Below, piece by piece: positions 1 through 14,479 of a stretch of 14,479 nt of DNA. Numbering within the stretch: position 1 is the stretch's first letter; every line of letters begins with the position of its first letter. The notes under the pieces are model-generated. The model saw only the letters and a program-made list of their open reading frames with translations, searched no databases and was not told the origin of the DNA. The DNA is from a virus: UHGV virus genome UHGV-0177056. One strand, given 5' to 3'. Position numbers and translations under genes: made by a program.

Positions 1-49
1 TGGTTATTGCTGATTAGCTAACAGCACACGCCCCGCCAAAACGAGGCGC

Positions 50-879: not shown

Positions 880-1116
880 ATGATGGTTAGAAATGAAGTA
901 ATGAACAAAGACTGGCACCGCGAGTACATCGTTGCCGCTGTGCACACCAAAGGTTTTACATTGCGTGAACTTTCTGAACGCGCTGGTCTAAAAAAAGACT
1001 CTTTAAAAAATGCACTGTATCGCTCATGCCCTAAATATGAACGCATCATAGCCGATGCTATTGGTGTGGAACCTGCGGAGATCTGGCCAAGCCGGTATGC
1101 CAGTAAGGCGGCGTAA
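880..1116 (+). CDS. ner: Ner-like DNA-binding regulator
   Basis: Translation from ATG 880 (MMVRNEVMNKDWHREYIVAAVHTKGF...EIWPSRYASKAA) matches the Mu Ner / Nlp pattern (DWHR...GLKK...LSNAL...IIA.A....P..IWPSRY). The track ORF starts at 787, but that start would lie across the operator repeats; 880 has an AAGGG RBS-like sequence about 8 nt upstream. Confidence 0.8.
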   Translation: MMVRNEVMNKDWHREYIVAAVHTKGFTLRELSERAGLKKDSLKNALYRSCPKYERIIADAIGVEPAEIWPSRYASKAA

Positions 1117-3158
1117 TGTTTTATTCAGCCAATGAGCTGGCCGGTCTTCCTGGTTTGCCCGGTACAGTTCAGGGGGTGCGCTGGACGCTCAATCGGATCA
1201 CAGAGACGCACCCGGAATGGAAGCGCAAGCGTGAAGGCACCAAAGCATTCGAGTATCACATCGACTGCCTGCCCGCTGAAGCGCAGAAAGTTTTACGTAA
1301 GCGCCTGACCCATCAGGTCCTGGAAGATACGCAACTGCCCGCCGTGGTTGAGCAGAAGGCAGTTAAAAACGTCGCCGTTCGCGATGAACTGGAGGTGATG
1401 GTCAAATGCCCGGAACTGGCATTACGCGAAGTCCAGGCACTGACTGACAAGCAAAAGGCCATCGCTGATGCGCGGATATTGCTGGCTACTGAAGTGCATA
1501 AACTGCGTGAATACGCCGGAATGACAAGGAAGGCCGCGTTAAAGCACATCGTTGATGGTGTGCGCATGGGGGCGTTACCTGACCGCATTATCGAAGCAGC
1601 TAATACTGCAAATGCACGTCAGGGAAAGCGAACCGGTGTCAGCACAGGCAGCCTGGATAGTTGGTACTCCAGCTGGGTGATGGCGCGCGGTGATGCCAAT
1701 CAGTTACTGGCGTTACTGGCTCCCGGTCATCATAAGGGAACACCGTGGGAGCAGGTCTGGTGGTTGAGCGATTTCTTTATGTTCTATCGCTCATGGAAGC
1801 GCCCGACCGTTGAATATGCGTATCGCGAGTTTTCAGCCTGGTGGCATGAAAAACACGCGAACGATGCGGGAATGCTGGCGGCACTGCCTTCAGTTCACGC
1901 AGTAAGACGGGTGTTAAGCAGCGTCCCGGTGATTGTTAAAGAGCGTTTCCGCTCCACAGGTTCAGCCTGGCGTTCGCTCAATCCCTTTGTGCGGCGCGAG
2001 TGGACATCATTACCGGTTAATGCGGTATGGGTCGGGGATGGTCACTGTATGAAAATGACCGCGTTTAACCCCCTGACCGGCAATATTTTCCGGCCAGAAG
2101 TGACGCTGGTTATGGATGCAGGACAACGCTTTATTGTGGGCTGGTCACTGTCCCTGTCGGAGAACGTGATAGCCGTTGCTGATGCGTTACGTTACGGCAT
2201 GGCACAGCACGGGATACCGCTGATTTATTACTCCGATAACGGGGGCGGCGAAAAAAACCTGGTGCTTGATGCCGATATTACCGGGATTCTGCCCCGTCTG
2301 GGTGTGGAACATCACACGGGGATACCAGGTAACCCGCAGGGGCGCGGGGTGATTGAAAGGGTTAACAAGGAAATACCCAAAGACGTGGCCCTGAGTTTCC
2401 AAACGTACTGCGCAAGGGATGCAGACAAGGAAACCGTAATGATGCAGCAACGGATTATGCAGTCAGCCATTAAGGCCACCCACAAAGGGAAAGAGCTGAC
2501 AAAACGGCAGGTTAAGGCGAGGGATGAAATCCCTACCTTTGAGCAACTGATGGCAGCCATAGAGCTGGAGGTCAGACGCTATAACAACCGGCCACACAGC
2601 AGCCTTCCTCGCAAAGAGGATGGCGAGCATTACAGCCCGGCAGCGTATCGCCGGAAACTGATAAAAGAGCAGAATGTTGAAATTGATTTCCTGTCGCCGG
2701 AAGAACTGCATGAAATGTTCAGGCCGGAAGTGACGCGCAAAACATTTCGCGGGGAAATTCAGTTATTCAACAATATTTATTACTCATATGATCTGGCCGC
2801 AGAGCACGGGAATGAAGTCAGGGTCAGTTACGATATTCATGATGCAAACAGCGTCATTGTCCGGCGGGCTGATGGCTCTTATATCTGCGATGCCATCTGG
2901 AACGGTAACAAGGTTGATGCCTTCGCTAAACCAGTTATCGAACAAAAACTGGAGAAACGCGTCAAGGGCCGCATTGCACGGGCCACGCAGAAAATCGAAG
3001 AGGCTAAACGCGAGCTTACCCCGGCCATTACGCAGAAGCCTGACTTTAATCTGGGATATGGACTGGAACGCCTGGAGAAAAAGGAAAAAGAAGAACTTTA
3101 TTTATTCGCATCTGAACGCGAACGCAATTTAAAGAAAAACGGCACAAACAACCGTTAA
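1116..3158 (+). CDS. Mu-type transposase (MuA-like DDE transposase)
   Basis: 680-aa ORF directly after ner with TAATG stop/start overlap. N-terminus (ELAGLPGLPGT..GVRW) resembles the MuA DNA-binding domain; size and position match MuA. Acidic residues in VWVGDGH, YYSDNGG and GVIERVNKE are consistent with a DDE core. Confidence 0.85.
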   Translation: MFYSANELAGLPGLPGTVQGVRWTLNRITETHPEWKRKREGTKAFEYHIDCLPAEAQKVLRKRLTHQVLEDTQLPAVVEQKAVKNVAVRDELEVMVKCPELALREVQALTDKQKAIADARILLATEVHKLREYAGMTRKAALKHIVDGVRMGALPDRIIEAANTANARQGKRTGVSTGSLDSWYSSWVMARGDANQLLALLAPGHHKGTPWEQVWWLSDFFMFYRSWKRPTVEYAYREFSAWWHEKHANDAGMLAALPSVHAVRRVLSSVPVIVKERFRSTGSAWRSLNPFVRREWTSLPVNAVWVGDGHCMKMTAFNPLTGNIFRPEVTLVMDAGQRFIVGWSLSLSENVIAVADALRYGMAQHGIPLIYYSDNGGGEKNLVLDADITGILPRLGVEHHTGIPGNPQGRGVIERVNKEIPKDVALSFQTYCARDADKETVMMQQRIMQSAIKATHKGKELTKRQVKARDEIPTFEQLMAAIELEVRRYNNRPHSSLPRKEDGEHYSPAAYRRKLIKEQNVEIDFLSPEELHEMFRPEVTRKTFRGEIQLFNNIYYSYDLAAEHGNEVRVSYDIHDANSVIVRRADGSYICDAIWNGNKVDAFAKPVIEQKLEKRVKGRIARATQKIEEAKRELTPAITQKPDFNLGYGLERLEKKEKEELYLFASERERNLKKNGTNNR

Positions 3159-3176
3159 TTTAAAAGGTATTTAATT

Positions 3177-4070
3177 ATGAGTTTAATTACGCAATTAAAT
3201 GACGTAATGGCCCGTCGCGGCTATACGCAAACCCACGTCGCCCGTGCTATTGGTCGTAGCAGCGCCGTTATCAACCAGTATTTACAGGGTAAATATCAGG
3301 GCGATATGGCTGATATTGAAGAACGCATTTCTGCCTTTGTGACCCGTGAGCGGGAAAAGGAAAACAGCCGCCGTATTAAAGCGAAATTTGTTGCCACCGG
3401 TATGGCTGCCAAAGGACTGGAGGTGTTGGCCTATGCTCACCTGGAATGTGAAATCTGCGTACTGTATGGCGCGGCAGGTCTTGGCAAAACAATGATTCTG
3501 CGTGAATACGCCGCCAGAAACCGGGATGCGGTCCTGATTGAAGCCGACCCGGGCTATACAGCCAGAACACTGCTTGAGGAGCTGTGCCGCCAGCTGGGGG
3601 TAAAAGTTCGCGGCAATATCCACGAACTGATTGATGCATGTGTGCGAGAACTGCGTGATTCCGGTCGCCTGCTGATGGTGGACGAGGCTGAACTGCTCCC
3701 CTATCGCGCACTGGAGGTTCTGCGCCGTCTGCATGACAAAGCGGGTATCGGGATTGTCCTGGCGGGTATGCCACGCCTTCTGATTAACCTCAAGGGACGT
3801 CGCGGTGAGTTCGCCCAGTTATACAGCCGTGTGGCGCTGGCGCTTAACCTGGGCGATACGCTGTCGCAGGAAGATTTTAACCAGATAGCTACCGGGCTGA
3901 TGCCGGAAGCAGCAGAACCGGAAATCAGCGAGGCGCTCTACGCACGCTCACTGGGTAATGCCCGCCGCCTGTTCAAACTGGCTCGCGGTGTGTACCGGAT
4001 TTGTGATATCAGCGATGCACCGGTCAGTGTGCAGGCCATTGATAAATTCGCAGAAATGTTAATTCACTGA
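3177..4070 (+). CDS. MuB-like transposition ATPase (AAA+ target-DNA activator)
   Basis: 297-aa ORF after the transposase. N-terminal HTH-like segment, Walker A GAAGLGKT, Walker B LLMVDEAE. Position and length match Mu B. Confidence 0.85.
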   Translation: MSLITQLNDVMARRGYTQTHVARAIGRSSAVINQYLQGKYQGDMADIEERISAFVTREREKENSRRIKAKFVATGMAAKGLEVLAYAHLECEICVLYGAAGLGKTMILREYAARNRDAVLIEADPGYTARTLLEELCRQLGVKVRGNIHELIDACVRELRDSGRLLMVDEAELLPYRALEVLRRLHDKAGIGIVLAGMPRLLINLKGRRGEFAQLYSRVALALNLGDTLSQEDFNQIATGLMPEAAEPEISEALYARSLGNARRLFKLARGVYRICDISDAPVSVQAIDKFAEMLIH

Positions 4071-4309
4071 TGGAGAACAAGATGATGGACAAGCAGACCA
4101 TTAACGCCGTCCGTTCCCGTGCCCGTGTGGCCATCCACACCACCGGCGGTCGCGTAACTGGGCAACATCACCGTTTACCTGTGGTTTATGCCTGCCCGCC
4201 CGTGGGCGGCCCTGTATGGCCGGTAACGGAAATCATCCAGACATTCAGCGGCCTGCGCCGCGTGGTGAAAACGTCCTGTATCGACGGCTGCACCGTCGTA
4301 TGGCAATAA
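4070..4309 (+). CDS. Hypothetical small protein (79 aa), early accessory region
   Basis: Only ORF covering this interval; TGATG stop/start overlap with the MuB-like gene. Gly/Pro/Val-rich translation, no recognisable motif. Confidence 0.35.
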   Translation: MENKMMDKQTINAVRSRARVAIHTTGGRVTGQHHRLPVVYACPPVGGPVWPVTEIIQTFSGLRRVVKTSCIDGCTVVWQ

Positions 4310-4321
4310 GAGGAAATCAGA

Positions 4322-4537
4322 ATGGCGGTTAAGTTAGAAGTAATTATCTATACCGATGAAAAAGGCTGTGTTTTAACCCAGACCACGGGGAGTTATTCGA
4401 AGGACGGAGCTTCCGAAAAGGAGTTTCAGGTGGCAACAAGATTACATGATGCTATCAAGGAAACGCTCAGAAATGACTATAACGGCGTGAATCTTTTTTC
4501 TGAAAATGTTGCGCCTCGCGCACATAACACACATTAA
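4322..4537 (+). CDS. Hypothetical small protein (71 aa)
   Basis: Strong RBS AAGAGGAAA 6 nt upstream of the ATG. Same strand and spacing as neighbouring genes. Confidence 0.55.
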   Translation: MAVKLEVIIYTDEKGCVLTQTTGSYSKDGASEKEFQVATRLHDAIKETLRNDYNGVNLFSENVAPRAHNTH

Positions 4538-4566
4538 TCTGTAAATATCACTGAGGTAATTTAATT

Positions 4567-5211
4567 ATGACGACTGAAAATAAAGTTAAGCAATATACAA
4601 AAAATAAAGTGCAGGAAGGCTACTGGGTTGATGCCCGTGGTGTGATGACGCCTGAAAGTCTTATCAAAGATATTGACCGCGACCGTGAGCAGCTGGTCGG
4701 TGAGCTTGTGGAGATGGTGATTGCTGCCTCTGCCTCACTGCGTGAACTGAAACTGCGTGCGTTTGGTGATATTCAGGCATTTATTGACCTGTCGGCGGAG
4801 AAATACGGCGCTGTGAAAGGCGGTAAAAAAGGGAATATCACACTTTACAGCTTTGACGGGCGTTACAAGATTCAGCGCGCCATGCAGGACCGTATCGCGC
4901 TTGATGAACGCATTCAGACCGCGAAGGCACTGATTGATGACTGTCTGGCTGACTGGACGGAAGGAGCGCGCCCTGAAATTAAAGCCATCATCAGTGAAGC
5001 ATTCAGCACGGACAAGGAAGGCAACATTAACACCGGGCGCGTTCTGGCTCTGCGTCGTCTCGATATTACGGAGGAACGCTGGGATAACGCCATGAAACTG
5101 ATTGGTGAAGCCGTCCAGGTAATTGGCAGCAAAAGCTATATCCGCGTGTATGAGCGCGTCGGTGATTCTGCTGAATACCGCGCAATCCCGCTTGATATTG
5201 CAGGGGTTTAA
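4567..5211 (+). CDS. DUF3164-like protein typical of Mu-like phage accessory regions
   Basis: 214-aa ORF with GAGGT RBS. Size and position in a Mu-like early region fit the DUF3164 family; the family assignment is from memory, not a search. Confidence 0.6.
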   Translation: MTTENKVKQYTKNKVQEGYWVDARGVMTPESLIKDIDRDREQLVGELVEMVIAASASLRELKLRAFGDIQAFIDLSAEKYGAVKGGKKGNITLYSFDGRYKIQRAMQDRIALDERIQTAKALIDDCLADWTEGARPEIKAIISEAFSTDKEGNINTGRVLALRRLDITEERWDNAMKLIGEAVQVIGSKSYIRVYERVGDSAEYRAIPLDIAGV

Positions 5212-5212
5212 C

Positions 5213-5446
5213 ATGCATCAGGATATCAAAGAGTACAGGGCCGGGAACCGTTGCGCAGCGTATTCGCTGGGCGCGTCCAGAGCAGAACAACGCGGCGATT
5301 ATGCCGAAGCTGAAAAACTGTGGCGTAAGGCAGCACAAAGCCCGTGTAGTACCCTGCGCCGCATCTGGGCGGAACACCGGGCAGAGTTCTGTGCCAATGC
5401 TCACCTGAAAAGATGGAAGCCGCCTCATGAACGCGAAACGCTTTAA
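5213..5446 (+). CDS. Small ANR-like regulator (78 aa)
   Basis: ATG at 5213 lies 2 nt after the upstream stop (5209-5211), so it is preferred over the track start at 5123, which would overlap the previous gene by 89 nt. Translation (RAEQRGDYAEAEKLWRKAA...RAEFCA) resembles ANR-family small regulators. Confidence 0.5.
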   Translation: MHQDIKEYRAGNRCAAYSLGASRAEQRGDYAEAEKLWRKAAQSPCSTLRRIWAEHRAEFCANAHLKRWKPPHERETL

Positions 5447-5618
5447 TCAGCTATATCCGCCAGGGACTCGCTTCATGCACATTGCACATCGGGCAGTGCG
5501 TGGTGGTCGGGTGGTAAAAACTGTTGCACCTGCCAGAGATTTTAAATGTGGTTGTGTGGTTGAAATTAATGTCGAGCCTTATTTCGTTAAAGTCGAAACA
5601 CTGAAAGCACCGCATTAA
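5427..5618 (+). CDS. Hypothetical small basic protein (63 aa)
   Basis: Start overlaps the end of the previous gene, same strand; no recognisable domain. Confidence 0.4.
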   Translation: MNAKRFNQLYPPGTRFMHIAHRAVRGGRVVKTVAPARDFKCGCVVEINVEPYFVKVETLKAPH

Positions 5619-5647
5619 TTTAATTTGTTTTTAATTGTTATTTAAAA

Positions 5648-5681
5648 CAGGCGTAAACCCGCAGGGGCTGGCTTACGCCTG
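5648..5681 (-). terminator. Putative intrinsic terminator between convergent genes
   Basis: Perfect 9-bp stem CAGGCGTAA (5648-5656) / TTACGCCTG (5673-5681) with a GC-rich loop. On the minus-strand transcript the hairpin is followed by UUUUAAAU, so it would terminate the 5759-5977 gene; it may also act on plus-strand read-through. Confidence 0.5.
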
Positions 5682-5758
5682 AATCTGAGGAAGTTTATTT
5701 ATGAATATTGCTAAGCAAAAAAAATTCGCCCGCGAAATTAATCTGACAATCGTTTGTT

Positions 5759-5977
5759 TTAATCGTCTTGCGACCAGTTCTCAATCGACAGCAGATGTTC
5801 ATCCAGCGCCGCAGCCAGAACGAACTCCCCACGTTCCTGAAGGCCGTGCTGGAAGTTGCGTAATTCAGAATCCAGGGCGCTGAGGTTCAGACAGCCATTT
5901 TCTGAAAGCTGTTTAACCAGAAAGCTCCACGCAGCTTTGTTAGCAGTAATTGCTGCCGCAATTTCATCATCAATCAT
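5759..5977 (-). CDS. Reverse-oriented small acidic protein (72 aa), function unknown
   Basis: Minus-strand ORF with strong RBS (AGGAG, 6-nt spacer) and the downstream hairpin terminator. About 14 acidic versus about 5 basic residues. Only the repressor shares this orientation in the window. Confidence 0.55.
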   Translation of the reverse strand: MIDDEIAAAITANKAAWSFLVKQLSENGCLNLSALDSELRNFQHGLQERGEFVLAAALDEHLLSIENWSQDD

Positions 5978-6065
5978 TTTTTAACTCCTGATTGGGTATG
6001 TTGGGGCAGCGATTATGACAAGTGTTTTGTGGTTATAAGTTGATCAAAAACAATGAGTTACAACC
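5978..6065. promoter_or_regulatory. Divergent intergenic region (candidate promoters for the 5759-5977 gene and the 6066 operon)
   Basis: 88-bp non-coding gap between divergently oriented ORFs; no consensus promoter hexamers could be assigned by eye. Confidence 0.3.
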
Positions 6066-6776
6066 ATGAAAGATAAATACATTGCCAAAATCAAAAAACT
6101 GTTACGCCTTGCCAGAGGAACATCAAGCCCGGAAGAAGCCGCTAACGCTATTGCAAAAGCCCAGGCTTATATGCGCCAGCATGGTATCAGCGAAAACGAC
6201 GCGGAATTGTTCGACATTCAGGAAGCTGCCAGCGCGGGTGCGCCGAGTGACGCCAGTACGCCGCCGCGTTATATGCACATCCTGTGTGACCTGGTCTGTA
6301 AAGCCTTCGGTGTCGAGTGTTACATCTCCGGCGAATACCGGGCTTCTGGTTCACTCAAACGTTACGTGCGTTTTTATGGTCCTGACAGCCGCCCGGAAAT
6401 CGCGGCTTACGCGTTTGATGTGCTTTCCCGTCAGATGATGGCAGAGCGCAAGAAATATCAGGATAAACACTGCAAACGTTGTGGTCCGTCCACGCGGGTA
6501 GCCCGTGGCGACCAGTTCTGCGAAGGCTGGGTCTTTGGTGCCCGTGATGTCATTGCGGTGTATGACGTCTCCCCGGAAGAAAAAAGCCGCCTTGAGCTTT
6601 ACAGAAAGAACCTGCACAGCACTAAGGGACTGCGCGACGGGGATATGCGCACAGCTAAAGCGTGTCGGGGTGCAGAGTTTGCCGCTACTGCCGGTTTTAT
6701 CGCCGGGAAGAACGCCAGGCTGCATCAGGGGGTTAATGGTCAGAGCAACAGACCGCTGGCACTGGGGAGGGTGTAA
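6066..6776 (+). CDS. DUF2786-like phage protein
   Basis: N-terminus KIKKLLRLARGTSSPEEAANAIAKAQAYMRQHGI matches the DUF2786 signature (KI.KLLALA..T.NE.EA..A..KAQELM..H) common in prophages. 236 aa. Confidence 0.7.
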   Translation: MKDKYIAKIKKLLRLARGTSSPEEAANAIAKAQAYMRQHGISENDAELFDIQEAASAGAPSDASTPPRYMHILCDLVCKAFGVECYISGEYRASGSLKRYVRFYGPDSRPEIAAYAFDVLSRQMMAERKKYQDKHCKRCGPSTRVARGDQFCEGWVFGARDVIAVYDVSPEEKSRLELYRKNLHSTKGLRDGDMRTAKACRGAEFAATAGFIAGKNARLHQGVNGQSNRPLALGRV

Positions 6777-6778
6777 CG

Positions 6779-7006
6779 ATGGCTTTTAAACTTCTTAGTG
6801 TTACCGAAGCAATATACCAGCCGCCCGGAGAACGCCACGAATACAGGATGAATGACGGTAGCGCGGTGGTTGAGTTCCCCGGATATCCGGGGGCTTCCCG
6901 GTGGCGGTTCTATGACAGTGTGGGACGTCGGATTATTAAAAGAACCGTGCACAACAATATGAAGGCTGCCGTAGAACGTCATAAGAGAAGGTTTAACTGC
7001 AAATGA
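6779..7006 (+). CDS. Hypothetical protein (75 aa)
   Basis: GGAGGG RBS 8 nt upstream; start 2 nt after the upstream stop (translational coupling). Confidence 0.55.
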   Translation: MAFKLLSVTEAIYQPPGERHEYRMNDGSAVVEFPGYPGASRWRFYDSVGRRIIKRTVHNNMKAAVERHKRRFNCK

Positions 7007-7233
7007 AAATTGAATTTTATGACCATGGGGTCACCGCAACTATCACTATTTCTTGTTGGTTCTGGGAGTTCCACCGTTACTTCAGAGTTGTAGATGCTGC
7101 GCTGTTTGTTGCACCGGGAGCGTTACATCACAGTGGAATCGGTATTGTTATGAACACTGTCATCAGCGGTAAAACGGTCCCGATGTTGCGGGCGTTTAAA
7201 GTGGCAAAACAGGAGGCTGGCAATGGTCATTGA
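7003..7233 (+). CDS. Hypothetical protein (76 aa)
   Basis: ATGA start/stop overlap with the upstream gene; hydrophobic stretches; weak RBS. Confidence 0.4.
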   Translation: MKIEFYDHGVTATITISCWFWEFHRYFRVVDAALFVAPGALHHSGIGIVMNTVISGKTVPMLRAFKVAKQEAGNGH

Positions 7234-7537
7234 TAAAACGATAACGATAGATGTAGCCATGAATACAGGTCTGGCGCTTATCGGTTATGGCTATATCACT
7301 TTTATGTCATTCAGGTGGTTGATTTCTTCGCTCTTTAAGCAGCGTGAAAAACATCGTTGTAAAGACAAGCGCGCGAAGGCGCTAAATGCGTTTAATGACG
7401 CTTTTGATATTGACCATATGCAACAGGGCGACCCCGCACGCGTAATTACCCGGGGAGATATCGTAATTCTTGTGTACCGGAATGAAAAAAATGAACAGGA
7501 GACAACCAGTGAGTCAGCAAACCAGAATAAGCGATAA
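7223..7537 (+). CDS. Hypothetical single-pass membrane protein (104 aa)
   Basis: Strong AGGAGG RBS 6 nt upstream. Hydrophobic segment GLALIGYGYITFMSFRWLISSLF followed by a basic stretch (KQREKHRCKDKRAK), suggesting N-out/C-in topology. Confidence 0.6.
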   Translation: MVIDKTITIDVAMNTGLALIGYGYITFMSFRWLISSLFKQREKHRCKDKRAKALNAFNDAFDIDHMQQGDPARVITRGDIVILVYRNEKNEQETTSESANQNKR

Positions 7538-7673
7538 GAGTCTGACCAGACTGATTGCCGATGCGGACAAGGTGCTGGAGCGGAACTCCCCCGTTGCCGA
7601 TGAGGAATGGTGGCAGGATTTCCGGGCTGCAATGCTGGAACTTCAGGAACGTCGTCGGGAGGTGTTGAAGTGA
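7509..7673 (+). CDS. Hypothetical small protein (54 aa, GTG start)
   Basis: GTG at 7509 preceded by GGAG with a 7-nt spacer. The track ORF begins at TTG 7470, but the RBS supports 7509. Overlaps the upstream gene by 29 nt. Confidence 0.45.
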   Translation: MSQQTRISDKSLTRLIADADKVLERNSPVADEEWWQDFRAAMLELQERRREVLK

Positions 7674-7939
7674 GTGAATTAAAGTGTCGAATTAATGGCA
7701 ATCAGATAGAACCGTGTGCGGTACTGGCAAAAGCACTCGAATATGGAAATCCAGCCTTTAAGAGTAAAGGCATATTTATCCCGGAACGCGTGAATATAAA
7801 CACCGGCGAGCCAGGCTTAGACATTGCTCAAATTCACTCCGGCCAATATGTCGGTCGTGGTGTTGCCATGTGTTTTTGCCCGTTCTGTGGTGAAAGTCTG
7901 AAAACATGGAAAAAGGAGGCAACCAGTGAGCGAGATTAA
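7670..7939 (+). CDS. Small Cys-containing protein, possible zinc ribbon (89 aa, GTG start)
   Basis: GTG at 7670 overlaps the upstream stop (GTGA) with GGGAGG upstream. Cys at residues 6 and 16 plus a C-terminal CFCPFC cluster. The track ORF starts at 7607, but that stretch is Gly/Ser-rich and overlaps the upstream gene. Confidence 0.5.
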   Translation: MSELKCRINGNQIEPCAVLAKALEYGNPAFKSKGIFIPERVNINTGEPGLDIAQIHSGQYVGRGVAMCFCPFCGESLKTWKKEATSERD

Positions 7940-8492
7940 CTATCAGGCACTGCGTGAGGTGGCAGAGGCCGCGAAGGGGGATACGACGTGGCAGAACCTA
8001 CAGGCTTTTCATGCTGCGGCTACGCCGGAGGTTGTGCAGGCGTTGCTGGATGAAAACGAAAGACTGTGTCGCGATCTGATAGCTCGTAATGGTGAGATTG
8101 AAGGGCTTCGGGAGTGGGCAGAAGAACTGGAGGCACGGGAGGTGGCTTTGCCAGTAGCGTCATGCATTGTTGAAGATGGATGCATGTGTGTTGATGGGTT
8201 CAGTGAGTATGTAGGTCACTCGCTATCTGATGGAATGCATGAGCTTTATGCTGCCCCGCCAGCGTCGGTAGTGCCGGAAGGACTAGTTAAAGCAGTGCGT
8301 TTCTATGAACAGGTATCGCTACACAGACCGGCGAACTGTCCGATGGTCTGGTTTTTAACGGCACCATTCATAAAAACTTTGAGCTGCGTCTGCCGGTCAT
8401 GCGTGATAACGGGCAGGCACTGGAAGAAACTGAAGAACGCTTTCAGACAGTGGACGGCTTCGCGGCGGATTATTACTACCGCTGTGCGGTAA
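7926..8492 (+). CDS. ead/Ea22-like protein, N-terminal region; C-terminal ~60 codons of the ORF are of doubtful coding nature
   Basis: GTG start with GGAGG RBS. N-terminus MSEINYQALREVAEAAKGDTTW resembles the lambdoid Ea22/ead family start (..QALREAAEKAT.GEW). After about 8300 the translation turns Cys/Arg-rich and non-protein-like, while the chaperone-like frame opens. Confidence 0.5.
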   Translation: MSEINYQALREVAEAAKGDTTWQNLQAFHAAATPEVVQALLDENERLCRDLIARNGEIEGLREWAEELEAREVALPVASCIVEDGCMCVDGFSEYVGHSLSDGMHELYAAPPASVVPEGLVKAVRFYEQVSLHRPANCPMVWFLTAPFIKTLSCVCRSCVITGRHWKKLKNAFRQWTASRRIITTAVR

Positions 8493-8689
8493 TGGCGGCA
8501 ACGCTGGTCCGTCTGGGGGATATTCCGCAGGAAGAACTGACGGCGGAGCTGTTGCACGACAACATGACGCCGGAAGATTTTAATATTCTGCTGGCATCAC
8601 GCAACGTCCTGAAGGTAAAGCGGAGCGGCGGGAATCCCGGCTCGCCGGACTCCGGCTCGCAGTCCTTATCCTCGGGCGCTACGGAATAA
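8309..8689 (+). pseudogene. Tail assembly chaperone-like reading frame lacking an N-terminal start (5'-truncated, or expressed from internal ATG 8399)
   Basis: Frame is open from 8309 with protein-like translation (LVFNGTIHKNFELRLPVMRDNGQALEE...LVRLGDIPQEELTAELLHDNMTPEDFNILLA), but no ATG/GTG/TTG occurs before 8399. Position immediately upstream of the tape measure is typical of a chaperone. Family resemblance is by pattern only. Confidence 0.45.
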
Positions 8690-8703
8690 CTGAAGAACAA
8701 ATC

Positions 8704-8862
8704 ATGACCATGAGCCGTCCCGAGCTGGACGGCTGGCTTGCCGCCGTTGACAGGCTGAACGGCGGCGGCTCAGGAAGAAAGGACACCTCACAGACCACCC
8801 GCCAGTCATTTAAATCCCTCAGAAAGAAACGCAGAAAAGGTAAACAGAAAAATGGCCGGTAA
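8704..8862 (+). CDS. Small ORF in the -1 frame relative to the chaperone-like gene (possible frameshift extension or independent small basic protein)
   Basis: The -1 frame is open from 8584 through 8862, overlapping the chaperone 3' end and the tape measure start. ATG at 8704; translation MTMSRPELDGWLAAVDRLNGG... with a Lys/Arg-rich C-terminus. This geometry matches chaperone long-form arrangements. Confidence 0.35.
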   Translation: MTMSRPELDGWLAAVDRLNGGGSGRKDTSQTTRQSFKSLRKKRRKGKQKNGR

Positions 8863-10246
8863 TTTCAAAGTTGGCATGACCCTGACTGCGAAGGACGAAG
8901 CCTCGCAGGTTCTGGAAAAGGGACAAAAACAGGTTATCAAAGCCACCGAAGGTGTAACAAAGGCAACCCGGAAGGCAGGCGCAGAGCAGACGCGTACCGG
9001 GCAGGAAAGCGTTAACAGCACGAAAAAGGCGGCAAAAGAGATACAGCGTGCCGCCCGTGCCCGGGAAACGCTCGGTATTCGTGCAGAACGCGAGATCCGG
9101 CGTGAAATTTATCAGACGGTTGCCAGCTATAACCGTCTGGCCCGCGCCGGTTTTGAATCTGCGCAGGAGCAGGAGCGCGCCATGCAGGCCACCCGGGAAA
9201 AAGCCCGGGCACTCAAGCGTGAACTGGATGGCGTCACTCAGGCTCAGATGAAGATGGCGAAAACGCCTGTTATCCCTGAACGGGGGCGTTTTGCCCGTGC
9301 GGCTGCATTTGGCGGGAATGCCGTGACAATAGGCGGCGGAATTATGGCAGGGGCCGCCATTATGACGCAACCAGTCAGAAATCAAATGAGTTATGAACGT
9401 CAGCTCAGCATGATGGCGAACACGGCGTTCAGTGATGGTGGTCTGGAAGGCAGGCAGTTTGGGCGTGAAAAGCTGAAAAACAGTATCCGCGCGGCGGTAA
9501 CGTATGGTGGCGGAACGAAAGAGGATGCAGCTGAAGCAATGAATGAGATGTTGGCCAGCGGCGCTTTTTCCTGGGATACCGCGAATAATCTCTTACCGCA
9601 GATTATGAAATTTGCTACTGCATCCGGCGCATCTCCACGCGATCTGGTCACTATGGCGGCCAAAGCTAAACAAACATTTGGACTGACAGATGACGACCTC
9701 CCGGCCATGTTTAATATGGCTGTCGCAGCAGGTAAAGCGGGTAATTTTGAGCTACGGGATATGGCGGAATATCTTGGACCTCAGATGGCGTTAGCTGGTA
9801 ACGCCGGAATGAAAGGACTGGATGGACTCCAGAAATTACTGGCATTTAATGAGGTCGCAGGGATTGCCGCAGGCAGCAGCAGTGAAGCAGGTAATAACGT
9901 TGTAAACCTGCTGGCCAAACTTTTCAGTAGTGAATCAGCAACAAGGGCGAAAAGCATCACGATTGATGGCAAAGGTATTGATCTACCTGGTACGTTGACC
10001 CGAGCTATGGAAAACGGCATTGATCCGATAGAAGCATTTTCACGCCTCACTGATAAAGTCACCGCGAACAACAAACAATATCAGGAGCTTCAGAAGCGTC
10101 TGGCAGCAACAAAAGACAAAGGCCAGCAGGACAAAATCCTAGAGTCTATGGCGAAAATTCTTGAGGGGTTCGGTGTTGGTGAGCTTGTTGGTGATATGCA
10201 GGCACTGAAGGCAATCCTGGCTTACTGCACCTTTAAATACCGTTAA
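8852..10246 (+). CDS. Tail tape measure protein (short, 464 aa)
   Basis: Coiled-coil-like Ala/Lys/Glu/Arg-rich N-terminus, Gly/Ala-rich hydrophobic segment (AAAFGGNAVTIGGGIMAGAAIM), and a core-like motif FELRDMAEYLGPQMALAGNAGMKGLDGLQKLLAFNEVAGIAAGSSSEAGNNVVNLLAKL. Position is upstream of the baseplate hub genes. Confidence 0.8.
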   Translation: MAGNFKVGMTLTAKDEASQVLEKGQKQVIKATEGVTKATRKAGAEQTRTGQESVNSTKKAAKEIQRAARARETLGIRAEREIRREIYQTVASYNRLARAGFESAQEQERAMQATREKARALKRELDGVTQAQMKMAKTPVIPERGRFARAAAFGGNAVTIGGGIMAGAAIMTQPVRNQMSYERQLSMMANTAFSDGGLEGRQFGREKLKNSIRAAVTYGGGTKEDAAEAMNEMLASGAFSWDTANNLLPQIMKFATASGASPRDLVTMAAKAKQTFGLTDDDLPAMFNMAVAAGKAGNFELRDMAEYLGPQMALAGNAGMKGLDGLQKLLAFNEVAGIAAGSSSEAGNNVVNLLAKLFSSESATRAKSITIDGKGIDLPGTLTRAMENGIDPIEAFSRLTDKVTANNKQYQELQKRLAATKDKGQQDKILESMAKILEGFGVGELVGDMQALKAILAYCTFKYR

Positions 10247-10250
10247 CAGC

Positions 10251-11102
10251 ATGATTAAAAAAGCCCAGACAGTGCGTGCCACACTGGTGAATACCCTGCT
10301 GTCGTTCAAAAGTGATTTTGTCTCCACTGTCGATAATATCGTGTCACTGGCAGGCGAACCCGGAAAATTTATCAATGGACTGGCAGAGGTGCTGGAAATC
10401 CACACATCAGATGTCGGGCAACCGGTGCCGGTTCTGCAACGTGTTGATTCTGCCACCCGGACCGGGTTGGCAGGAGAGACGACCGTCGCCAGTTCTGCGA
10501 CAGTGATGAACTGCTGGAATAAGGTCATCACTGATATGGATGAATTTGTTGCGCTGCCTGTTGCCCTGGTCAGTGGCGATAAAGTACCGGAGGTGGTACT
10601 TCCTGCGGATGCCTCGCCAGACGATGTGCAGGATGTGAAAGCAGTTTACGCAACACAGGCCGCATCTGAACTGGCCAGTGTTGCAATGGCGATACTGGTT
10701 GATGATGCGCAGTCAGAACAGCTTATACCGGCGGATATCGGGCGACTGGTCGGGGATGTGCGCACCCGCTTACAGGCTGCCATCACGCTGTTCCGTGAAC
10801 GCTATGAAGGCGAACGCGAACGGATAACCGAAACCGCATCACCGCTGGGGCTGATGTACCCGGAAATCATTCAGAGCATGAAAAACGTGGCGGCATCCGT
10901 GCAGGATGTCGGCCTGCTGGTTCTGTCACGCCGCCCACCGCTGATGCAGAAACAGGTGCAGGCGGACAGCTGTCTGCTGTTGCTGGCGTGGCAGTGGTAC
11001 GGTGATTACAGTCGTGCGGCAGAACTGCAACGTCTGAACCCGCAGCTGCGTGACCCGAACAACATAACCGCCGGGGTGGTCATTAATGCCTACGCAAAAT
11101 AA
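10251..11102 (+). CDS. Tail protein with C-terminal LysM/tail-protein-X-like domain (positional equivalent of Mu gp43/N)
   Basis: 283-aa ORF starting 4 nt after the tape measure stop. C-terminus (DSCLLLLAWQWYGDYSRAAELQRLNPQLRDPNNITAGVVINAY) matches the P2 gpX pattern D.L..I...YYG.......L..NP.L. Confidence 0.65.
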   Translation: MIKKAQTVRATLVNTLLSFKSDFVSTVDNIVSLAGEPGKFINGLAEVLEIHTSDVGQPVPVLQRVDSATRTGLAGETTVASSATVMNCWNKVITDMDEFVALPVALVSGDKVPEVVLPADASPDDVQDVKAVYATQAASELASVAMAILVDDAQSEQLIPADIGRLVGDVRTRLQAAITLFRERYEGERERITETASPLGLMYPEIIQSMKNVAASVQDVGLLVLSRRPPLMQKQVQADSCLLLLAWQWYGDYSRAAELQRLNPQLRDPNNITAGVVINAYAK

Positions 11103-12297
11103 CGAAGACAAAATCAGCCTGGTCATTGCCGGAAGGTCGCATTCTGACTGGAACAGTTATCGTATTGACAGCGATTTCCTGAAAGCTGCCGACGGCTGGC
11201 AGCTTCAGCTGGGGCTGCCTGAAAAGGTGTTCCCGGCGGATATCGTCCGGGGCGCACAAATCCGGTTGCAGGTGGGAGACGAAACGGTGCTCAGTGGGCG
11301 CATAGACAGCGTGCGCCGCAGTGTATCCCGTCAGAGCTGCACGCTGACCCTGTCCGGGCGTGATGATGCCGCCATCCTGGTGGACTGTGCCGCGCCAGTG
11401 TTCAGCGCCAACCAGCTGACGCTGGACGAGGTCATCGACAGGATTGTCAGACCGCTGGGGATACAGCGCATCCGTATTCAGGCGTCCGGTGTGTCACGTA
11501 ATGACAAAGTCGTTATTGAGCCGGGGATGCGTGCGTGGGATGCACTGGCCAAAGCTGCCGCCGGTCGCGGCTTATGGCCGTGGTTTGAGCCTGACGGGAC
11601 GCTGGTTGTGGGTGGCCCTGACTACACCACCACGCCGGTGGATACGCTGATTCTGAAGCTGAACGGCACCGGGAACAACGTGATGGAGCTGGACGATACC
11701 CGGTCCATTAACGGCTGTTTCTCCGAACTTACTGTGCTGGCCCAGAGCCACGCCCGCCGCGCAGACAGCAAGAAACAGGTGGCCGTGGTGCCGCTGGATA
11801 TCTGGAACGAGGACGGCAGCGTGCGCACATTGTCCGGGCAGGACAGCGGTAATACGGACAGTGGCCAGACAGGCATTCATAACATGAAAGCCGTTGCCAC
11901 CGACCCCACCGTGGATTATTACCGCCCGCAGATAATCACCCAGGGCGACACCAGCAATCTGGAGCAGGTGAACTGGCGCGCAAAAAAAATGATGAGTGAT
12001 GCCCGCCTGTCGGGGCTGGATATCGTCGCGCTGGTTGCAGGTCATCGCACGGCAGATGGTGTTCTGTGGCAGCCCGGCCAGCGGGTGCGGATTGTCAGCG
12101 AACTCCACGGCATTGATGCCATCTTTTTCCTGATGGGGCGTGAGTTCAGCGGAGGCCGAAACGGGCAGACAACCCGGCTCCGCTTTAAAGAGGACGGCGT
12201 GTGGATACCTGATGCCTTCCCGCGCGAGAAGAAACGCCATCACCGCAGGGGCAAAAAGAAAAAAGAGGTCGCCATTGTTAAGGTCTGGGAGAAATGA
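11086..12297 (+). CDS. Late control gene D-like tail protein (Mu gp44/P-like baseplate hub)
   Basis: 403-aa ORF; size, position after the tape measure and X-like protein, and overall pattern fit the gpD/gp44 family. Unusual Lys/Arg/His-rich C-terminal tail. Confidence 0.8.
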   Translation: MPTQNNEDKISLVIAGRSHSDWNSYRIDSDFLKAADGWQLQLGLPEKVFPADIVRGAQIRLQVGDETVLSGRIDSVRRSVSRQSCTLTLSGRDDAAILVDCAAPVFSANQLTLDEVIDRIVRPLGIQRIRIQASGVSRNDKVVIEPGMRAWDALAKAAAGRGLWPWFEPDGTLVVGGPDYTTTPVDTLILKLNGTGNNVMELDDTRSINGCFSELTVLAQSHARRADSKKQVAVVPLDIWNEDGSVRTLSGQDSGNTDSGQTGIHNMKAVATDPTVDYYRPQIITQGDTSNLEQVNWRAKKMMSDARLSGLDIVALVAGHRTADGVLWQPGQRVRIVSELHGIDAIFFLMGREFSGGRNGQTTRLRFKEDGVWIPDAFPREKKRHHRRGKKKKEVAIVKVWEK

Positions 12298-12947
12298 TGT
12301 GGGACAAAGTTAATCAGCGCGTACAGCAGGCACTGGCCGCCGTTCGCCAGGCATTCAGGGTGGTGACCGGTACGGTGGACAGTTCGACCAAAGTACAGCT
12401 GCTTCAGCTTAACGGGCTGGCAGGCGAACAGCTGGACGGTGCGGAGTATTTTCAGCATTACGGCCTCACCACATCCCCGCCGCCCGGCTCAATGGGTATT
12501 GCCGTTCCGCTGAACGGCAATACCTCTCATACTGTCGTGGTGGCCACAGAGCACGGCGCATATCGTCTGACGGAACTGAAACCCGGGGAAGTGGCCCTGT
12601 ATACCGATGAAGGCGCGAAAATCGTACTGAAGCGCGGACGGGTTATTGAAACCGAATGTGACGTTTATCGCGTGAAATGCAAACGCTACGAGGTTGAGGC
12701 AGAGGAGAACGCCACATTCACGACACCGTTACTGACAGCCAGTGACAGGCTGACGGTGGAAGGCAAAATCACCGGCAACGGTGGCATGGCCATCAGTGGG
12801 GGCAAGGGATACACTGCCACCTTTGAAGGCGATATCAACCATGTGGGTGGAGTGATTACCTCCGTTGACGTCACCATTAATGGCGTTAAAATCGGAACGC
12901 ACAAACATCCAACCCCACACGGCATGTCTGACACGCCGGTTAATTAA
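12294..12947 (+). CDS. Baseplate assembly protein V-like (Mu gp45-like spike)
   Basis: 217-aa ORF with ATGA overlap to the upstream gene. N-terminal OB-fold-like region and a Gly-rich beta-rich C-terminus (GKITGNGGMAISGG...INHVGGVITSVDVTINGVKIGTHKH) typical of gpV spike proteins. Confidence 0.8.
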   Translation: MMWDKVNQRVQQALAAVRQAFRVVTGTVDSSTKVQLLQLNGLAGEQLDGAEYFQHYGLTTSPPPGSMGIAVPLNGNTSHTVVVATEHGAYRLTELKPGEVALYTDEGAKIVLKRGRVIETECDVYRVKCKRYEVEAEENATFTTPLLTASDRLTVEGKITGNGGMAISGGKGYTATFEGDINHVGGVITSVDVTINGVKIGTHKHPTPHGMSDTPVN

Positions 12948-13000
12948 GTGCTGAACACCCTCACCTGATTCTGACCTGTCCATGCTGCCAGACTGGCGGC

Positions 13001-13339
13001 ATGGACCAGACGATTTCACCTGCAACCGGCGACTACGAACGCCGTCGGATTTATACCCTTCATAACGCGGTTTATCTGCGACTGGCGACGCCGCTTGGCA
13101 GTTACTGGGCGGATGCGTCGCTGGGGTCACGCCTGCACGAGCTGAAGCGGGAAAAAGACGTTTCCCGTGTTCATAAGCTTGCGGCGCAGTATGCCAGCCA
13201 GGCACTTCAGCCCCTGCTCGATGACGGGCGGGCAAAATCCATTACCGTTGACACAAAACCGGGGCAGCGCGGCTGGTTGTTGCTGTTAATCACCGTCACG
13301 GATAACGCGGGCACACCGCAGACGTTTGAACACCTGTGA
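13001..13339 (+). CDS. Mu gp46-like baseplate protein
   Basis: 112-aa ORF; GSRLHELKREKDVSRVHKLAAQYASQALQPLLDDGRAKSITVD...WLLLLITVTDNAGTPQTF fits the gp46 family pattern (SRLW.L.R.K.T...L....YA.EAL.WL.DDG.A..V.V......L.L.V....G....F). Confidence 0.75.
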   Translation: MDQTISPATGDYERRRIYTLHNAVYLRLATPLGSYWADASLGSRLHELKREKDVSRVHKLAAQYASQALQPLLDDGRAKSITVDTKPGQRGWLLLLITVTDNAGTPQTFEHL

Positions 13340-13349
13340 GGATTATGTA

Positions 13350-14429
13350 ATGCCGTTTCCTGTTCCGGGCGTTGCTGAAAACACAGAACGCCAGCTACGT
13401 GATATCGCTAACGCCCTGCCGGGCGAAACCATCGACACCGGCGCTGACAGCGATTACCGCATTCGTGCAAATGCCGTATCCGGCGTGGCGGACGGACTGT
13501 ATATGCATCAGGGGTGGATACTCCGTCAGGTGTTTCCTGATACGGCAGACCCTGAATATCTGGAGTTGCACTGCCGCACGCGCAATGTTTTTCGTAAAAA
13601 AGCAACGGCCTCATCCGGTCCGGCAGTGATTACCGGCACACCCGGTAAGACGCTGCCAGCCGGTGCGGAAATTCGTGGTGAAGGTGTCAGCGTGGCCACC
13701 GCAGCAGACTGCACCGTCGGTGATGAAGGCAGCGCAGAGGTGACGGTAAAAAGCACTGCCACGGGTGCACAGACGAATGCATCCACGACGCAGACGGCAA
13801 CGCTGGTCAGCCCACCTGAAGGCATCAACAGCACGGTGACGATTAAATCCCTGACCGGCGGAACGGACAGGGAAAGCGACGCCGACCTGCTGGCGCGTTA
13901 TCTGGATATTCTGCGCAGGCCGCCCGCTGGCGGTAATAAATATGATTACAAACGCTGGGCGCTGGAAGTGGATGGCGTTACGTCTGCGTATGTGGAGCCG
14001 TTGCGTCGTGGACTGGGGACGGTTGATGTGGCCATTACGTCAGCCAATGACCTCCCTTCGCAGGAACTGATTAATGCCGTGCTGGCACATATTGAGGAAG
14101 TCCGCCCGGTGACAGCGAAGGACACGATGGTGCTGGCCCCGACGAAAAAAGCCGTTGATTTCGTTGTCCGGGTAAAAACCAGTGGTCTTACTGTTGAACA
14201 GATAAAACCACAGATAACTGAAGTTATCACGGATTTTATGAACCGGCTGGAGCCGGGGCAGGAATTAATTATTTCACAACTGGAAACTCAGATTTCATTA
14301 ATTTCTGGCGTCAGTGACCGGCGAATTATTATGCCGTCAGATAATGTAAAAGCAGTTGTCAATGAATCCACATGGGAGTGGCTGCGTCCGGGGAGTATTG
14401 ATATCCAGCCATTTCCCCGGGAGAGTTAA
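13350..14429 (+). CDS. Baseplate J-like protein (Mu gp47-like)
   Basis: 360-aa ORF from ATG 13350 (GAGGA RBS, 7-nt spacer). The track start at 13326 would overlap the upstream gene. Size, position after gp46-like and sequence character fit baseplate J. Confidence 0.8.
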   Translation: MPFPVPGVAENTERQLRDIANALPGETIDTGADSDYRIRANAVSGVADGLYMHQGWILRQVFPDTADPEYLELHCRTRNVFRKKATASSGPAVITGTPGKTLPAGAEIRGEGVSVATAADCTVGDEGSAEVTVKSTATGAQTNASTTQTATLVSPPEGINSTVTIKSLTGGTDRESDADLLARYLDILRRPPAGGNKYDYKRWALEVDGVTSAYVEPLRRGLGTVDVAITSANDLPSQELINAVLAHIEEVRPVTAKDTMVLAPTKKAVDFVVRVKTSGLTVEQIKPQITEVITDFMNRLEPGQELIISQLETQISLISGVSDRRIIMPSDNVKAVVNESTWEWLRPGSIDIQPFPRES

Positions 14430-14432
14430 TAC

Positions 14433-14479
14433 ATGAATACGGTTGATTTATTTCGTGCCATGTTACCACCGGTCAGCTA
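14433..14479 (+). CDS. Start of gp48-like tail protein (DUF2313-like), truncated by window end
   Basis: ATG at 14433 with GGGAGAG RBS; translation MNTVDLFRAMLPPVS contains the LLPPVS-type N-terminal motif I associate with Mu gp48-like proteins. Only 15 codons visible. Confidence 0.5.
   Translation, partial: MNTVDLFRAMLPPVS

Follow-up and report, generated by a model that had tools for sequence, protein, structure and literature searches.

The window, i.e. the whole 14,479-nt stretch analysed here, very probably represents most of a defective, transposable Mu-like prophage of ~17.8 kb in total, which is located in ydjO of one E. coli lineage and arose from a 35.7-kb phage of the E2348/69 type by two illegitimate-recombination deletions at 2-4 bp of microhomology. 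It is an ordinary defective prophage, having lost its head, sheath, tube, lysis and late-regulator genes by deletion 1 and part of its tail core by deletion 2.

Two deletions relative to an intact prophage

When the window was compared by megablast with 50,697 phage records, the Ea22 region alone gave matches, of 43-261 bp each, and by tblastn isolated phages (INPHARED) contained no transposase more than 50% identical to the MuA protein of the element. No cultured phage was usable as reference and, therefore, the Mu-like prophage of E. coli E2348/69 (O127:H6; in eutC, NC_011601.1 ~2,715,945-2,751,650), which is complete with 35.7 kb and of which a literature search found no published description, was used instead. 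According to blastn the window is colinear with this prophage, with the same gene order and 97.6-99.4% nucleotide identity, except for two clean deletions: window 1-8315 corresponds to 1199-9512 of the E2348/69 locus (L003; 97.6% identity), window 8314-10225 to 26128-28039 (99.4%) and window 10222-14479 to 29408-33666 (98.8%). Genes were called by Pfam and PHROGs profile scans of the window proteins, orthologues were compared with E2348/69 by tblastn, and gene order is given on the plus strand except for the repressor and the 72-aa ORF (Table 1). Every window gene has an E2348/69 counterpart with 94-100% identity (the 75-aa ORF, without annotation there, lies outside the orthologue comparison), and, the junction-truncated genes aside, the retained genes are full length. 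Absent are 16,615 bp plus 1,368 bp, i.e. 27 whole genes and parts of four; as expected for a deletion prophage, the gaps relative to the intact prophage are discrete, are mapped to the base and cut short four ORFs at their borders.

Table 1. Features of the window, with the evidence for each assignment (E2348/69 denotes the intact reference prophage)
Feature	Position	Strand	Evidence or comparison
Repressor, 215 aa, CI-type HTH, divergent from early operon	50-697	-	PF07022 2e-06; phrog_3037 transcriptional repressor 4.5e-58; 100% amino acid identity to E2348/69
Ner-like HTH_35 regulator, 78 aa	880-1116 (program-made ORF starts at 787)	+	PF13693 2.2e-25; 100% identity to E2348/69
MuA-type DDE transposase, 680 aa, full length	1116-3158	+	PF09299 Mu-transpos_C 1.5e-16; PF02316 HTH_Tnp_Mu_1 1.5e-10; 98.4% identity to E2348/69 over 680 aa
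MuB-type AAA+ target-DNA activator, 297 aa, full length	3177-4070	+	PF13401 AAA_22 8.8e-23; TniB 3.5e-07; 99.3% identity to E2348/69
Kil-like	4070-4309	+	phrog_2679 Kil 1.1e-38; full length vs E2348/69
71-aa ORF, early accessory	between Kil-like and DUF3164 genes		full length vs E2348/69
DUF3164	4567-5211	+	PF11363 2.8e-79; full length vs E2348/69
ANR-like	5213-5446	+	full length vs E2348/69
63-aa ORF, early accessory	after ANR-like gene, within 4070-6065		full length vs E2348/69
72-aa ORF	5759-5977	-	full length vs E2348/69
DUF2786/DUF7168 gene, 236 aa, left edge of studied interval	6066-6776	+	PF23771 2.5e-29; PF10979 5.3e-13; 99.6% identity to E2348/69
Five small early accessory ORFs (75 aa, 76 aa, DUF4752, 54 aa, 89 aa)	6779-7939	+	PHROG families of unknown function
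75-aa ORF	6779-7006	+	
DUF4752, 104 aa	7223-7537	+	PF15944 1.5e-38
54-aa ORF	7509-7673	+	
89-aa ORF	7670-7939	+	
Ead/Ea22-like gene, truncated by deletion 1	7926-8492	+	PF13935 1.2e-15 on residues 2-96
Tail assembly chaperone remnant, codons 4-127	8309-8689	+	tblastn: E2348/69 residues 2-127 on window 8309-8686
Deletion 1 junction, TA microhomology	8314/8315		L003 9513-26127 (16,615 bp) missing; blastn coordinates, three-way junction alignment, deleted-gene list
52-aa ORF, 5' neighbour of tape-measure gene in intact phage too	8704-8862	+	phrog_3114; 100% identity to E2348/69
Tape measure, truncated: 458/757 native codons plus 6 foreign codons, then stop (464 aa vs 757 aa)	8852-10246	+	PF10145 8.3e-22; phrog_794 positions 2-448 of 763; tblastn residues 1-458/757
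Deletion 2 junction, TTAC microhomology, tape measure and gpN joined out of frame	10222-10225		L003 28040-29407 (1,368 bp) missing; blastn and junction alignment
gpN / Mu gp43 'DNA circularization' baseplate hub, C-terminal remnant, 283 aa	10251-11102	+	phrog_184 baseplate hub positions 169-411 of 411; tblastn residues 157-449; E2348/69 annotation
Mu gp44 / gpP-like baseplate hub, 403 aa, intact	11086-12297	+	PF21683, PF22255, PF22630, PF22174; 98.5% identity full length to E2348/69
Mu gp45-like spike / baseplate assembly protein V, intact	12294-12947	+	PF06890 8.3e-24; PF18715; 99.5% identity to E2348/69
GP46 family baseplate protein, 1-bp deletion near 3' end, 112 aa vs 116 aa	13001-13339	+	PF07409 7.2e-19; comparison with L005 and E2348/69
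Baseplate J / Mu gp47-like, 359 aa, intact	13350-14429	+	PF04865 4.2e-67; 99.4% identity full length to E2348/69

Deletion 1 starts within the Ea22-like gene, extends to codon 3 of the gene for the tail chaperone and removes the Ea22-like 3' end, gemA, mor, both holin genes, the endolysin, terminase, portal, head-maturation, capsid, head-tail connector, sheath and tube genes as well as the chaperone start codon; the E2348/69 annotation of the absent interval lists gp16/GemA, Mor, two holins, a GH108 endolysin, DUF1804, TerL, a DUF935 portal, head morphogenesis, a protease, the gpT capsid, sheath and tube. The Ea22-like ORF retains 130 of its 165 native codons, followed by ~58 out-of-frame codons in the chaperone gene, and its DNA homology to the E2348/69 gene ends at window 8315. 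The chaperone remnant, whose full-length E2348/69 protein matches phrog_508 tail assembly chaperone (8.4e-40), has neither ATG nor ribosome-binding site, the first in-frame start being at 8399 (listed ORF 8399-8689).

Deletion 2 costs the tape measure its last 299 codons and the gpN hub its first 156. The TTAC site in gpN is a breakpoint common to the window and the prophage of E. coli STEC306-308, which are independent derivatives, and may be a true deletion hot spot of the phage family. Two other causes of the common breakpoint were ruled out, namely a mosaic boundary, as 56 of the 59 genomes with the gene align straight across, and MuA cleavage at a pseudo-end, as no TTCTGGGC-type motif is nearby.

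The first-pass annotation had described an early Mu-like region joined to a baseplate module without late-regulator, lysis, head, sheath or tube genes. Indeed, Pfam and PHROGs detect none of the genes that characterize a particle-forming Mu-like phage (mor/C, lysis, terminase, portal, capsid, sheath, tube) in the window or in the rest of its source contig, and all of them lie within the E2348/69 interval deleted here. The suggested origin as deletion derivative, i.e. a defective prophage retaining transposase and baseplate, is borne out by the alignment, which runs end to end save for the two base-mapped deletions, the deleted 16.6 kb containing exactly the missing genes. Likewise, the proposed alignment to an intact Mu-like genome did map a breakpoint, in fact two, at the junctions given in Table 1. 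The layout of small ORFs and an Ea22-like gene between the DUF2786-like gene and the chaperone and tape-measure genes stands, whereas the chaperone is only a start-less remnant and the tape measure is truncated. The loss of the chaperone start, the tape-measure truncation, the missing N-terminal part of the gpN hub and the second deletion had been overlooked.

Early region and baseplate genes

The element has the hallmarks of a Mu-like phage, i.e. a MuA-type transposase, an adjoining downstream MuB-type ATPase, a divergent repressor/Ner pair and Mu-type baseplate genes. In MuA both PF02316, the Mu DNA-binding N-terminus, and PF09299 score above the gathering threshold, and matches to rve are weak. 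Repressor, Ner, MuA, MuB, Kil and the left end are all intact, and the 76-aa, DUF4752, 54-aa and 89-aa ORFs are 100% identical to their E2348/69 orthologues. PADLOC found no defence system among ten early accessory proteins save for one weak match (E = 0.003). In a scan of the window for promoters 4 promoter-like sites were found, i.e. fewer than the 11.5 in shuffled sequence, and a terminator scan gave no excess (23 vs 16.5 +/- 4.6).

Homologues of Mu gp43, gp44, gp45, gp46 and gp47 fill positions 10251-14429 on the plus strand, with Phage_Mu_Gp48 following just past the window end in the source contig. The gp44, gp45, gp47, gp48 and fibre genes are still intact, which is consistent with a recent deletion and, taken alone, does not exclude a retained function.

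Recurrence of the junctions and insertion site

In the source contig (L009), which is 100% identical to the window, the element is bordered immediately on its left by katE, cedA and ydjO of the host, and the ydjO sequence stops at contig position ~1812-1820, where the phage left end (TGTGGGGTAGTG...) starts. This end (TGTGGGG...) with its three TTCTGGGCG repeats, which are putative transposase-binding sites, is present in both the contig and E2348/69. To the right of the window only gp48, tail fibre and fibre-assembly genes are found, this part matching the final 3 kb of the E2348/69 prophage in colinear order, and the contig ends ~0.4 kb before the expected right end. A phage that is complete but arranged in a non-canonical order, whose head, sheath and tube genes would lie in another part of the element (a refuting case named by the first-pass annotation), is thus practically inconceivable, since host genes adjoin the left end and the remaining ~0.4 kb offers no space for ~15 kb of structural genes. 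The search to both sides that the first-pass annotation had recommended thus returned host genes on the left, gp48 and fibre genes on the right, and no capsid, terminase, sheath or tube gene anywhere in the contig.

As the source is a short-read metagenome assembly (MEGAHIT-style contig name) and the contig ends within a repeated tail-fibre region, one might suspect a chimera or collapse, i.e. an intact prophage mis-assembled across short repeats. Both junction-spanning proteins, however, are encoded on 11-12 contigs, which stem from six or more metagenomes or read sets (ERZ27289098, ERZ27287483, ERZ27274202, ERZ19661572, ERR11507440, ERR2619760), assembled by different pipelines (ENA assemblies with k119 and k141 names, Logan), and the microhomology of 2-4 bp is far below the length needed for k-mer collapse. 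An assembly chimera, which had been named as a way to overturn the first reading, can therefore be dismissed with near certainty, because the same junctions recur in these contigs from several samples.

The junction-carrying contigs are 99.97-100% identical to the window and differ between samples only by the gp46 frameshift and an SNP in the hub remnant, both located in the tail remnant and with the window allele being derived in both cases. Neither the deletion 1 nor the deletion 2 junction was found among 5,426 complete E. coli genomes, which makes the deletion young and restricted to a single lineage: the element is a recent, lineage-specific deletion derivative. In the prophage family the insertion site varies by strain (ydjO, eutC, yjiL/yjiK; with an ambiguity of 1 bp in the target duplication), and every contig with a left flank shows the same ydjO fragment, flankless contigs being uninformative on the site. 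All contigs end inside the invertible tail-fibre segment, and the right end (...GTTACA) is seen in E2348/69 only. One ydjO site in the flanked contigs and 0-2 changes relative to the window over 14.5 kb are what is expected for vertical inheritance at a single site and give no indication that the element has moved after the deletion.

Proposed history and comparison with known systems

We propose that a 35.7-kb phage of the type that is intact in eutC of E2348/69 was the ancestor, here inserted in ydjO, and that illegitimate recombination at TA would have caused the losses listed for deletion 1 and likewise at TTAC those of deletion 2. Owing to the gene losses from both deletions no virus particles could be built; the element would be unable to lyse cells or to make heads, tubes or complete baseplates. 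As mor is deleted, no late activator is left in the element, and the remaining baseplate and fibre genes would probably lack activation. The element may thus persist passively by vertical descent, silenced by its intact repressor, which would also be needed because Kil, MuA and MuB remain intact.

With the left end and the genes for repressor, Ner, transposition (MuA, MuB) and Kil intact, mini-Mu-like transposition is conceivable from the gene content. We regard it as very unlikely that the element is an active natural mini-Mu, which on derepression would transpose replicatively with MuA, MuB and both ends and would be packaged by the headful mechanism of an intact relative together with ~20 kb of adjacent host DNA. 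Highly improbable, too, is a functional head-less mobile element, i.e. a natural mini-Mu or satellite that would transpose by its own MuA/MuB, be packaged by an intact relative from a pac region at the left end and contribute its own baseplate and fibre proteins, e.g. for a change of host range. Such an element would account for the intact early genes, the left end with its three putative transposase-binding repeats and the intact baseplate and fibre genes, and laboratory mini-Mu with A, B and both ends does transpose and is packaged by helper Mu; moreover, the independent STEC306-308 derivative keeps the same two blocks, early region and baseplate, which also counts against simple decay. Nevertheless, the junctions cut the Ea22-like, chaperone, tape-measure and gpN ORFs instead of following module boundaries, leaving a start-less chaperone, 60% of a tape measure and an N-terminally truncated hub, their flanks match an intact phage at 98-99% identity, the late activator is gone with mor, gp46 is already frameshifted in the window, ydjO is the sole insertion site in flanked contigs, and the junctions are present in 0 of the 5,426 complete genomes. 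Hence, the other suggestion of the first-pass annotation, a head-less element in which a baseplate module is kept on purpose, finds no support. Nor does the element resemble a phage satellite of the P4, PICI or cf-PICI type, as its junctions lie inside genes, all its genes are of parental type, and it combines a single site with absence from the complete genomes.

The appropriate annotation is that of a defective Mu-like prophage in which the four genes truncated at the junctions, i.e. the Ea22-like, tail chaperone, tape-measure and gpN hub genes, are pseudogenes, and neither that of a new kind of head-less element nor that of a tailocin-like module. Beyond correct annotation the significance is small: the element documents, to the base, prophage decay by deletion at microhomologies in an E. 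coli Mu-like lineage that is common yet uncultured. As its transposase, MuB and Kil genes are left under one repressor, it also lends itself as a natural case for testing whether remnants of this kind can still move.

Defects of this kind are common in E. coli prophages, a precedent being the prophages of O157 Sakai with deletions, frameshifts and missing morphogenesis modules (PMC2669165). In Sakai, the defective prophages are lambdoid or P2-like, whereas the Mu-like Sp18 is predicted to be intact and its DNA is packaged (PMC2669165). The closest relative, the E2348/69 prophage, has an identical repressor and Ner, 98-99% identical MuA and MuB and the same left-end sequence and repeats, but sits in eutC rather than ydjO and differs in the C-terminal part of the tail fibre. 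The defective prophage of E. coli STEC306/307/308, located between yjiL and yjiK, belongs to the same family (89-97% identity) and also carries two internal deletions, by which lysis, head, sheath and tube genes were lost and tape measure and gpN were damaged. Its deletions are, however, independent events, the large one starting at the first holin gene and ending within the tape measure, the small one comprising 600 bp inside gpN. It keeps gemA and mor, and its insertion site is different.

The canonical gene order of bacteriophage Mu is c, ner, A, B, kil ... gemA, mor, C, lys, D/E, H, F, G, I, T, J, K, L, M, Y, N, P, Q, V, W, R, S/U. The element shares with this distant relative the divergent repressor/Ner pair followed by A, B and kil, the gp43-gp48 baseplate homologues and a TG-initiated end with repeated motifs resembling transposase sites, but lacks everything from gemA to the tube gene. 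Laboratory mini-Mu and Mud derivatives are engineered, internally deleted elements that keep repressor, A, B and the ends and for which transposition and helper packaging have been shown. The element described here is likewise internally deleted and retains repressor, A and B, but it is natural, known from sequence, and recovered with its left end only.

Gene content and the intact relative

The ORF listing and the profile scans (see table) agree with the first-pass annotation, which had described an early Mu-like region joined to a baseplate module, at the coordinates it gave: the window contains no gene for a late regulator, lysis, terminase, portal, capsid, sheath or tube. Apart from those cut at junctions, the retained genes are full length, and their proteins are 94-100% identical to the orthologues of E. 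coli O127:H6 E2348/69, whose eutC-borne prophage (locus L003) is the best reference. A megablast search of 5,426 complete E. coli genomes found relatives of the window in 320 genomes, none of which covers at least 80% of it in one piece.

Features of the window and blocks colinear with L003, the E2348/69 prophage locus
Feature	Window	Strand	Basis or remark
Repressor	50-697	minus	profile scans
Ner-like	880-1116	plus	profile scans
MuA	1116-3158		profile scans
MuB	3177-4070		profile scans
Kil-like, homologue of Mu Kil septation inhibitor	4070-4309		phrog_2679, 1.1e-38
DUF3164	4567-5211		profile scans
72-aa ORF	5759-5977	minus	antisense to early operon, in 450-bp gap between early genes
DUF2786/DUF7168	6066-6776		profile scans
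Five small ORFs, DUF4752 among them	6779-7939		profile scans
Ead/Ea22-like gene	7926-8492		profile scans
Tail-chaperone remnant	up to 8689		directly after Ead/Ea22-like gene
52-aa ORF	8704-8862
Tape-measure gene	8852-10246
Mu gp43, gp44, gp45, gp46 and gp47 homologues	10251-14429
Block 1	1-8315		L003 1199-9512, 97.6% (blastn)
Block 2	8314-10225		L003 26128-28039, 99.4% (blastn)
Block 3	10222-14479		L003 29408-33666, 98.8% (blastn)

According to its annotation the E2348/69 prophage is a complete Mu-like genome of ~35.7 kb, in the order repressor, Ner, A, B, early accessory genes, Ea22-like, gp16/GemA, Mor, two holins, GH108 endolysin, DUF1804, methyltransferase, TerL, DUF935 portal, head morphogenesis genes, protease, gpT capsid, connectors, sheath, tube, chaperone, 52-aa ORF, tape measure (757 aa), DNA-circularization/gpN hub (449 aa), gp44-gp48 and fibres. 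Comparison of the window with L003 by blastn yielded three colinear blocks; the window thus corresponds to the intact phage minus two deletions, and the breakpoint mapping against an intact Mu-like relative that had been proposed earlier places them at L003 9513-26127 (16,615 bp) and 28040-29407 (1,368 bp).

The Kil homologue directly follows MuB, i.e. it occupies the same place as in Mu, and is intact despite the defective state of the element. The 72-aa minus-strand ORF is 100% conserved with E2348/69, where it is annotated; it has no PHROG or PADLOC family match and may be a moron-type insert.

Deletion junctions and their recurrence

In three-way alignments both joins are clean, with TA microhomology for deletion 1 (window 8314/8315) and TTAC for deletion 2 (10222-10225), and neither an IS element nor a long repeat is found at the two junctions, a pattern characteristic of illegitimate recombination. 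Of the 165 codons of the Ea22-like gene, deletion 1 spares the first 130; at its other edge the first eight bases of the chaperone gene are lost. Beyond the junction the Ea22-like ORF continues for ~58 out-of-frame codons, to 8492, and the chaperone, which in its full-length E2348/69 form matches phrog_508 (8.4e-40), keeps codons 4-127 with no start codon before 8399. At deletion 2 the tape measure ends after codon 458 of 757, then come six foreign codons and a stop codon that closes the ORF at 10246, and the hub protein is reduced to residues 157-449 (ORF 10251-11102, matching phrog_184 at positions 169-411 of 411); annotation and blastn coordinates place the two genes in different frames.

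The proteins encoded across the two junctions, of 188 aa and 464 aa, are residue-for-residue identical on 11-12 contigs from the ENA assemblies ERZ27289098, ERZ27287483, ERZ27274202 and ERZ19661572 and the Logan assemblies of ERR11507440 and ERR2619760. One of these contigs, the 84.8-kb ERZ27289098 k119_7697, is 100% identical to the window, and no other shows more than one SNP and one 1-bp indel relative to it. An assembly artefact joining separate blocks, i.e. the chimera considered in the first-pass annotation, is excluded, as the same junctions recur across samples and assemblers and the microhomology comprises only 2-4 bp.

Polymorphism among samples is confined to a frameshift in gp46 (112 aa vs 116 aa) and, in the hub remnant, a SNP (T for C at window 10945). 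In the frameshift a single base pair is missing from the 3' end of the gene (window 13330-13339; sample ERZ27289098), by which the protein ends in ...FEHL instead of ...FEHPVRIM and the overlap with gp47 is abolished. Both changes affect the tail remnant, with the derived state in the window and the ancestral state in E2348/69 and the other samples. They are in keeping with relaxed constraint, which two events are too few to prove, and in the window represent either continuing decay or assembly error.

Taken together, two discrete deletions relative to a near-identical intact phage bear out the deletion derivative proposed first: the element is an ordinary case of a known prophage type that was recently reduced by deletion within one lineage. 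The other proposal, a purpose-built head-less mobile element or satellite, is unlikely, as the junctions cut genes, the flanking sequence is nearly identical to the intact phage, the insertion site is single among those seen and the deleted form is absent from complete E. coli genomes, where neither junction was found.

The element lacks all genes for late activation, lysis, DNA packaging, head, sheath and tube, and its chaperone, tape measure and hub are truncated. Based on established Mu biology, it would on its own form neither particles nor tail-like structures, its baseplate genes would be deprived of Mor/C-dependent activation, and it would persist, repressed, by vertical descent. Retention of an intact repressor is plausibly explained by Kil, MuA and MuB being intact, so that derepression would harm the host. 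Any remaining mini-Mu-like transposition of the element would depend on its right end, which the contigs do not reach.

Insertion site and ends of the element

On the source contig (L009; ERZ27289098 k119_7697) katE, cedA and a 190-aa ydjO fragment lie to the left of the element. The phage left end TGTGGGGTAGTG... takes over from host homology at L009 ~1812-1820 and also adjoins eutC in E2348/69. In this left end TTCTGGGCG occurs as three direct repeats, at +18, +92 and +143 (L009 1820-1965; L003 936-1090), just outside the window, which begins 256 bp inside this end, and the E2348/69 right end (L003 36597-36650) contains two inverted copies. By analogy with Mu L1-L3 and R1-R3 these repeats are likely transposase-binding sites.

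To the right of the window the contig is colinear with E2348/69 across gp48, fibre and fibre-assembly genes and breaks off in the invertible fibre segment, ~0.4 kb before the expected right end, so that structural genes would have no space elsewhere in the element. A non-canonical gene order with such genes at another place in the same element, another option raised earlier, is thus excluded by the host flank to the left and by the colinearity to the right.

At the E2348/69 right end, L003 36461-36553 encodes a 31-aa remnant (MFIGYVRASTNDQDTDLQRNALNCAGYELIF, followed by a stop) of a Gin/Hin-type serine invertase and nothing more; despite this mere remnant, the fibre and fibre-assembly genes of E2348/69 are oppositely oriented. 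The fibre segment may be frozen in the E2348/69-type prophage family.

Related derivatives and known prophages

A second head-less derivative, which arose independently within the same prophage family, lies between yjiL and yjiK in E. coli STEC306/307/308 (in STEC308, locus L001, NZ_CP091020.1 14261-36083). This family member, ~8-11% diverged across tail and late accessory genes, has two deletions, one of ~15 kb that reaches from the first holin gene into the tape measure and one of 600 bp inside gpN; it has a holin::tape-measure fusion pseudogene and keeps gemA, mor, early region, baseplate and fibres. The left edge of its 600-bp deletion (L003 29409-29411; L001 ~28243) falls inside the same gpN TTAC (L003 29408-29411) as the right edge of deletion 2. 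A natural mosaic boundary at this site was rejected, since 56 of the 59 genomes with the gene align straight across. The shared breakpoint may be a deletion hot spot or a coincidence, the chance of the latter being ~3 in 1,000 by a rough estimate from a post hoc comparison.

No isolated phage of the phage collection has a transposase more similar to this MuA than 49.6% identity, i.e. this Mu-like lineage, common as prophage (320/5,426 complete E. coli genomes), has no cultured representative there. With its MuA domains, MuB, repressor/Ner arrangement and Mu-type baseplate the element conforms to Mu-like transposable prophages, and its left end is TG-initiated and carries repeats, but as a phage it is incomplete. 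Defective prophages of this typical kind are widely documented in E. coli, e.g. in the prophage pool of O157 Sakai (PMC2669165), where the Mu-like prophage Sp18 was predicted to be intact (PMC2669165).
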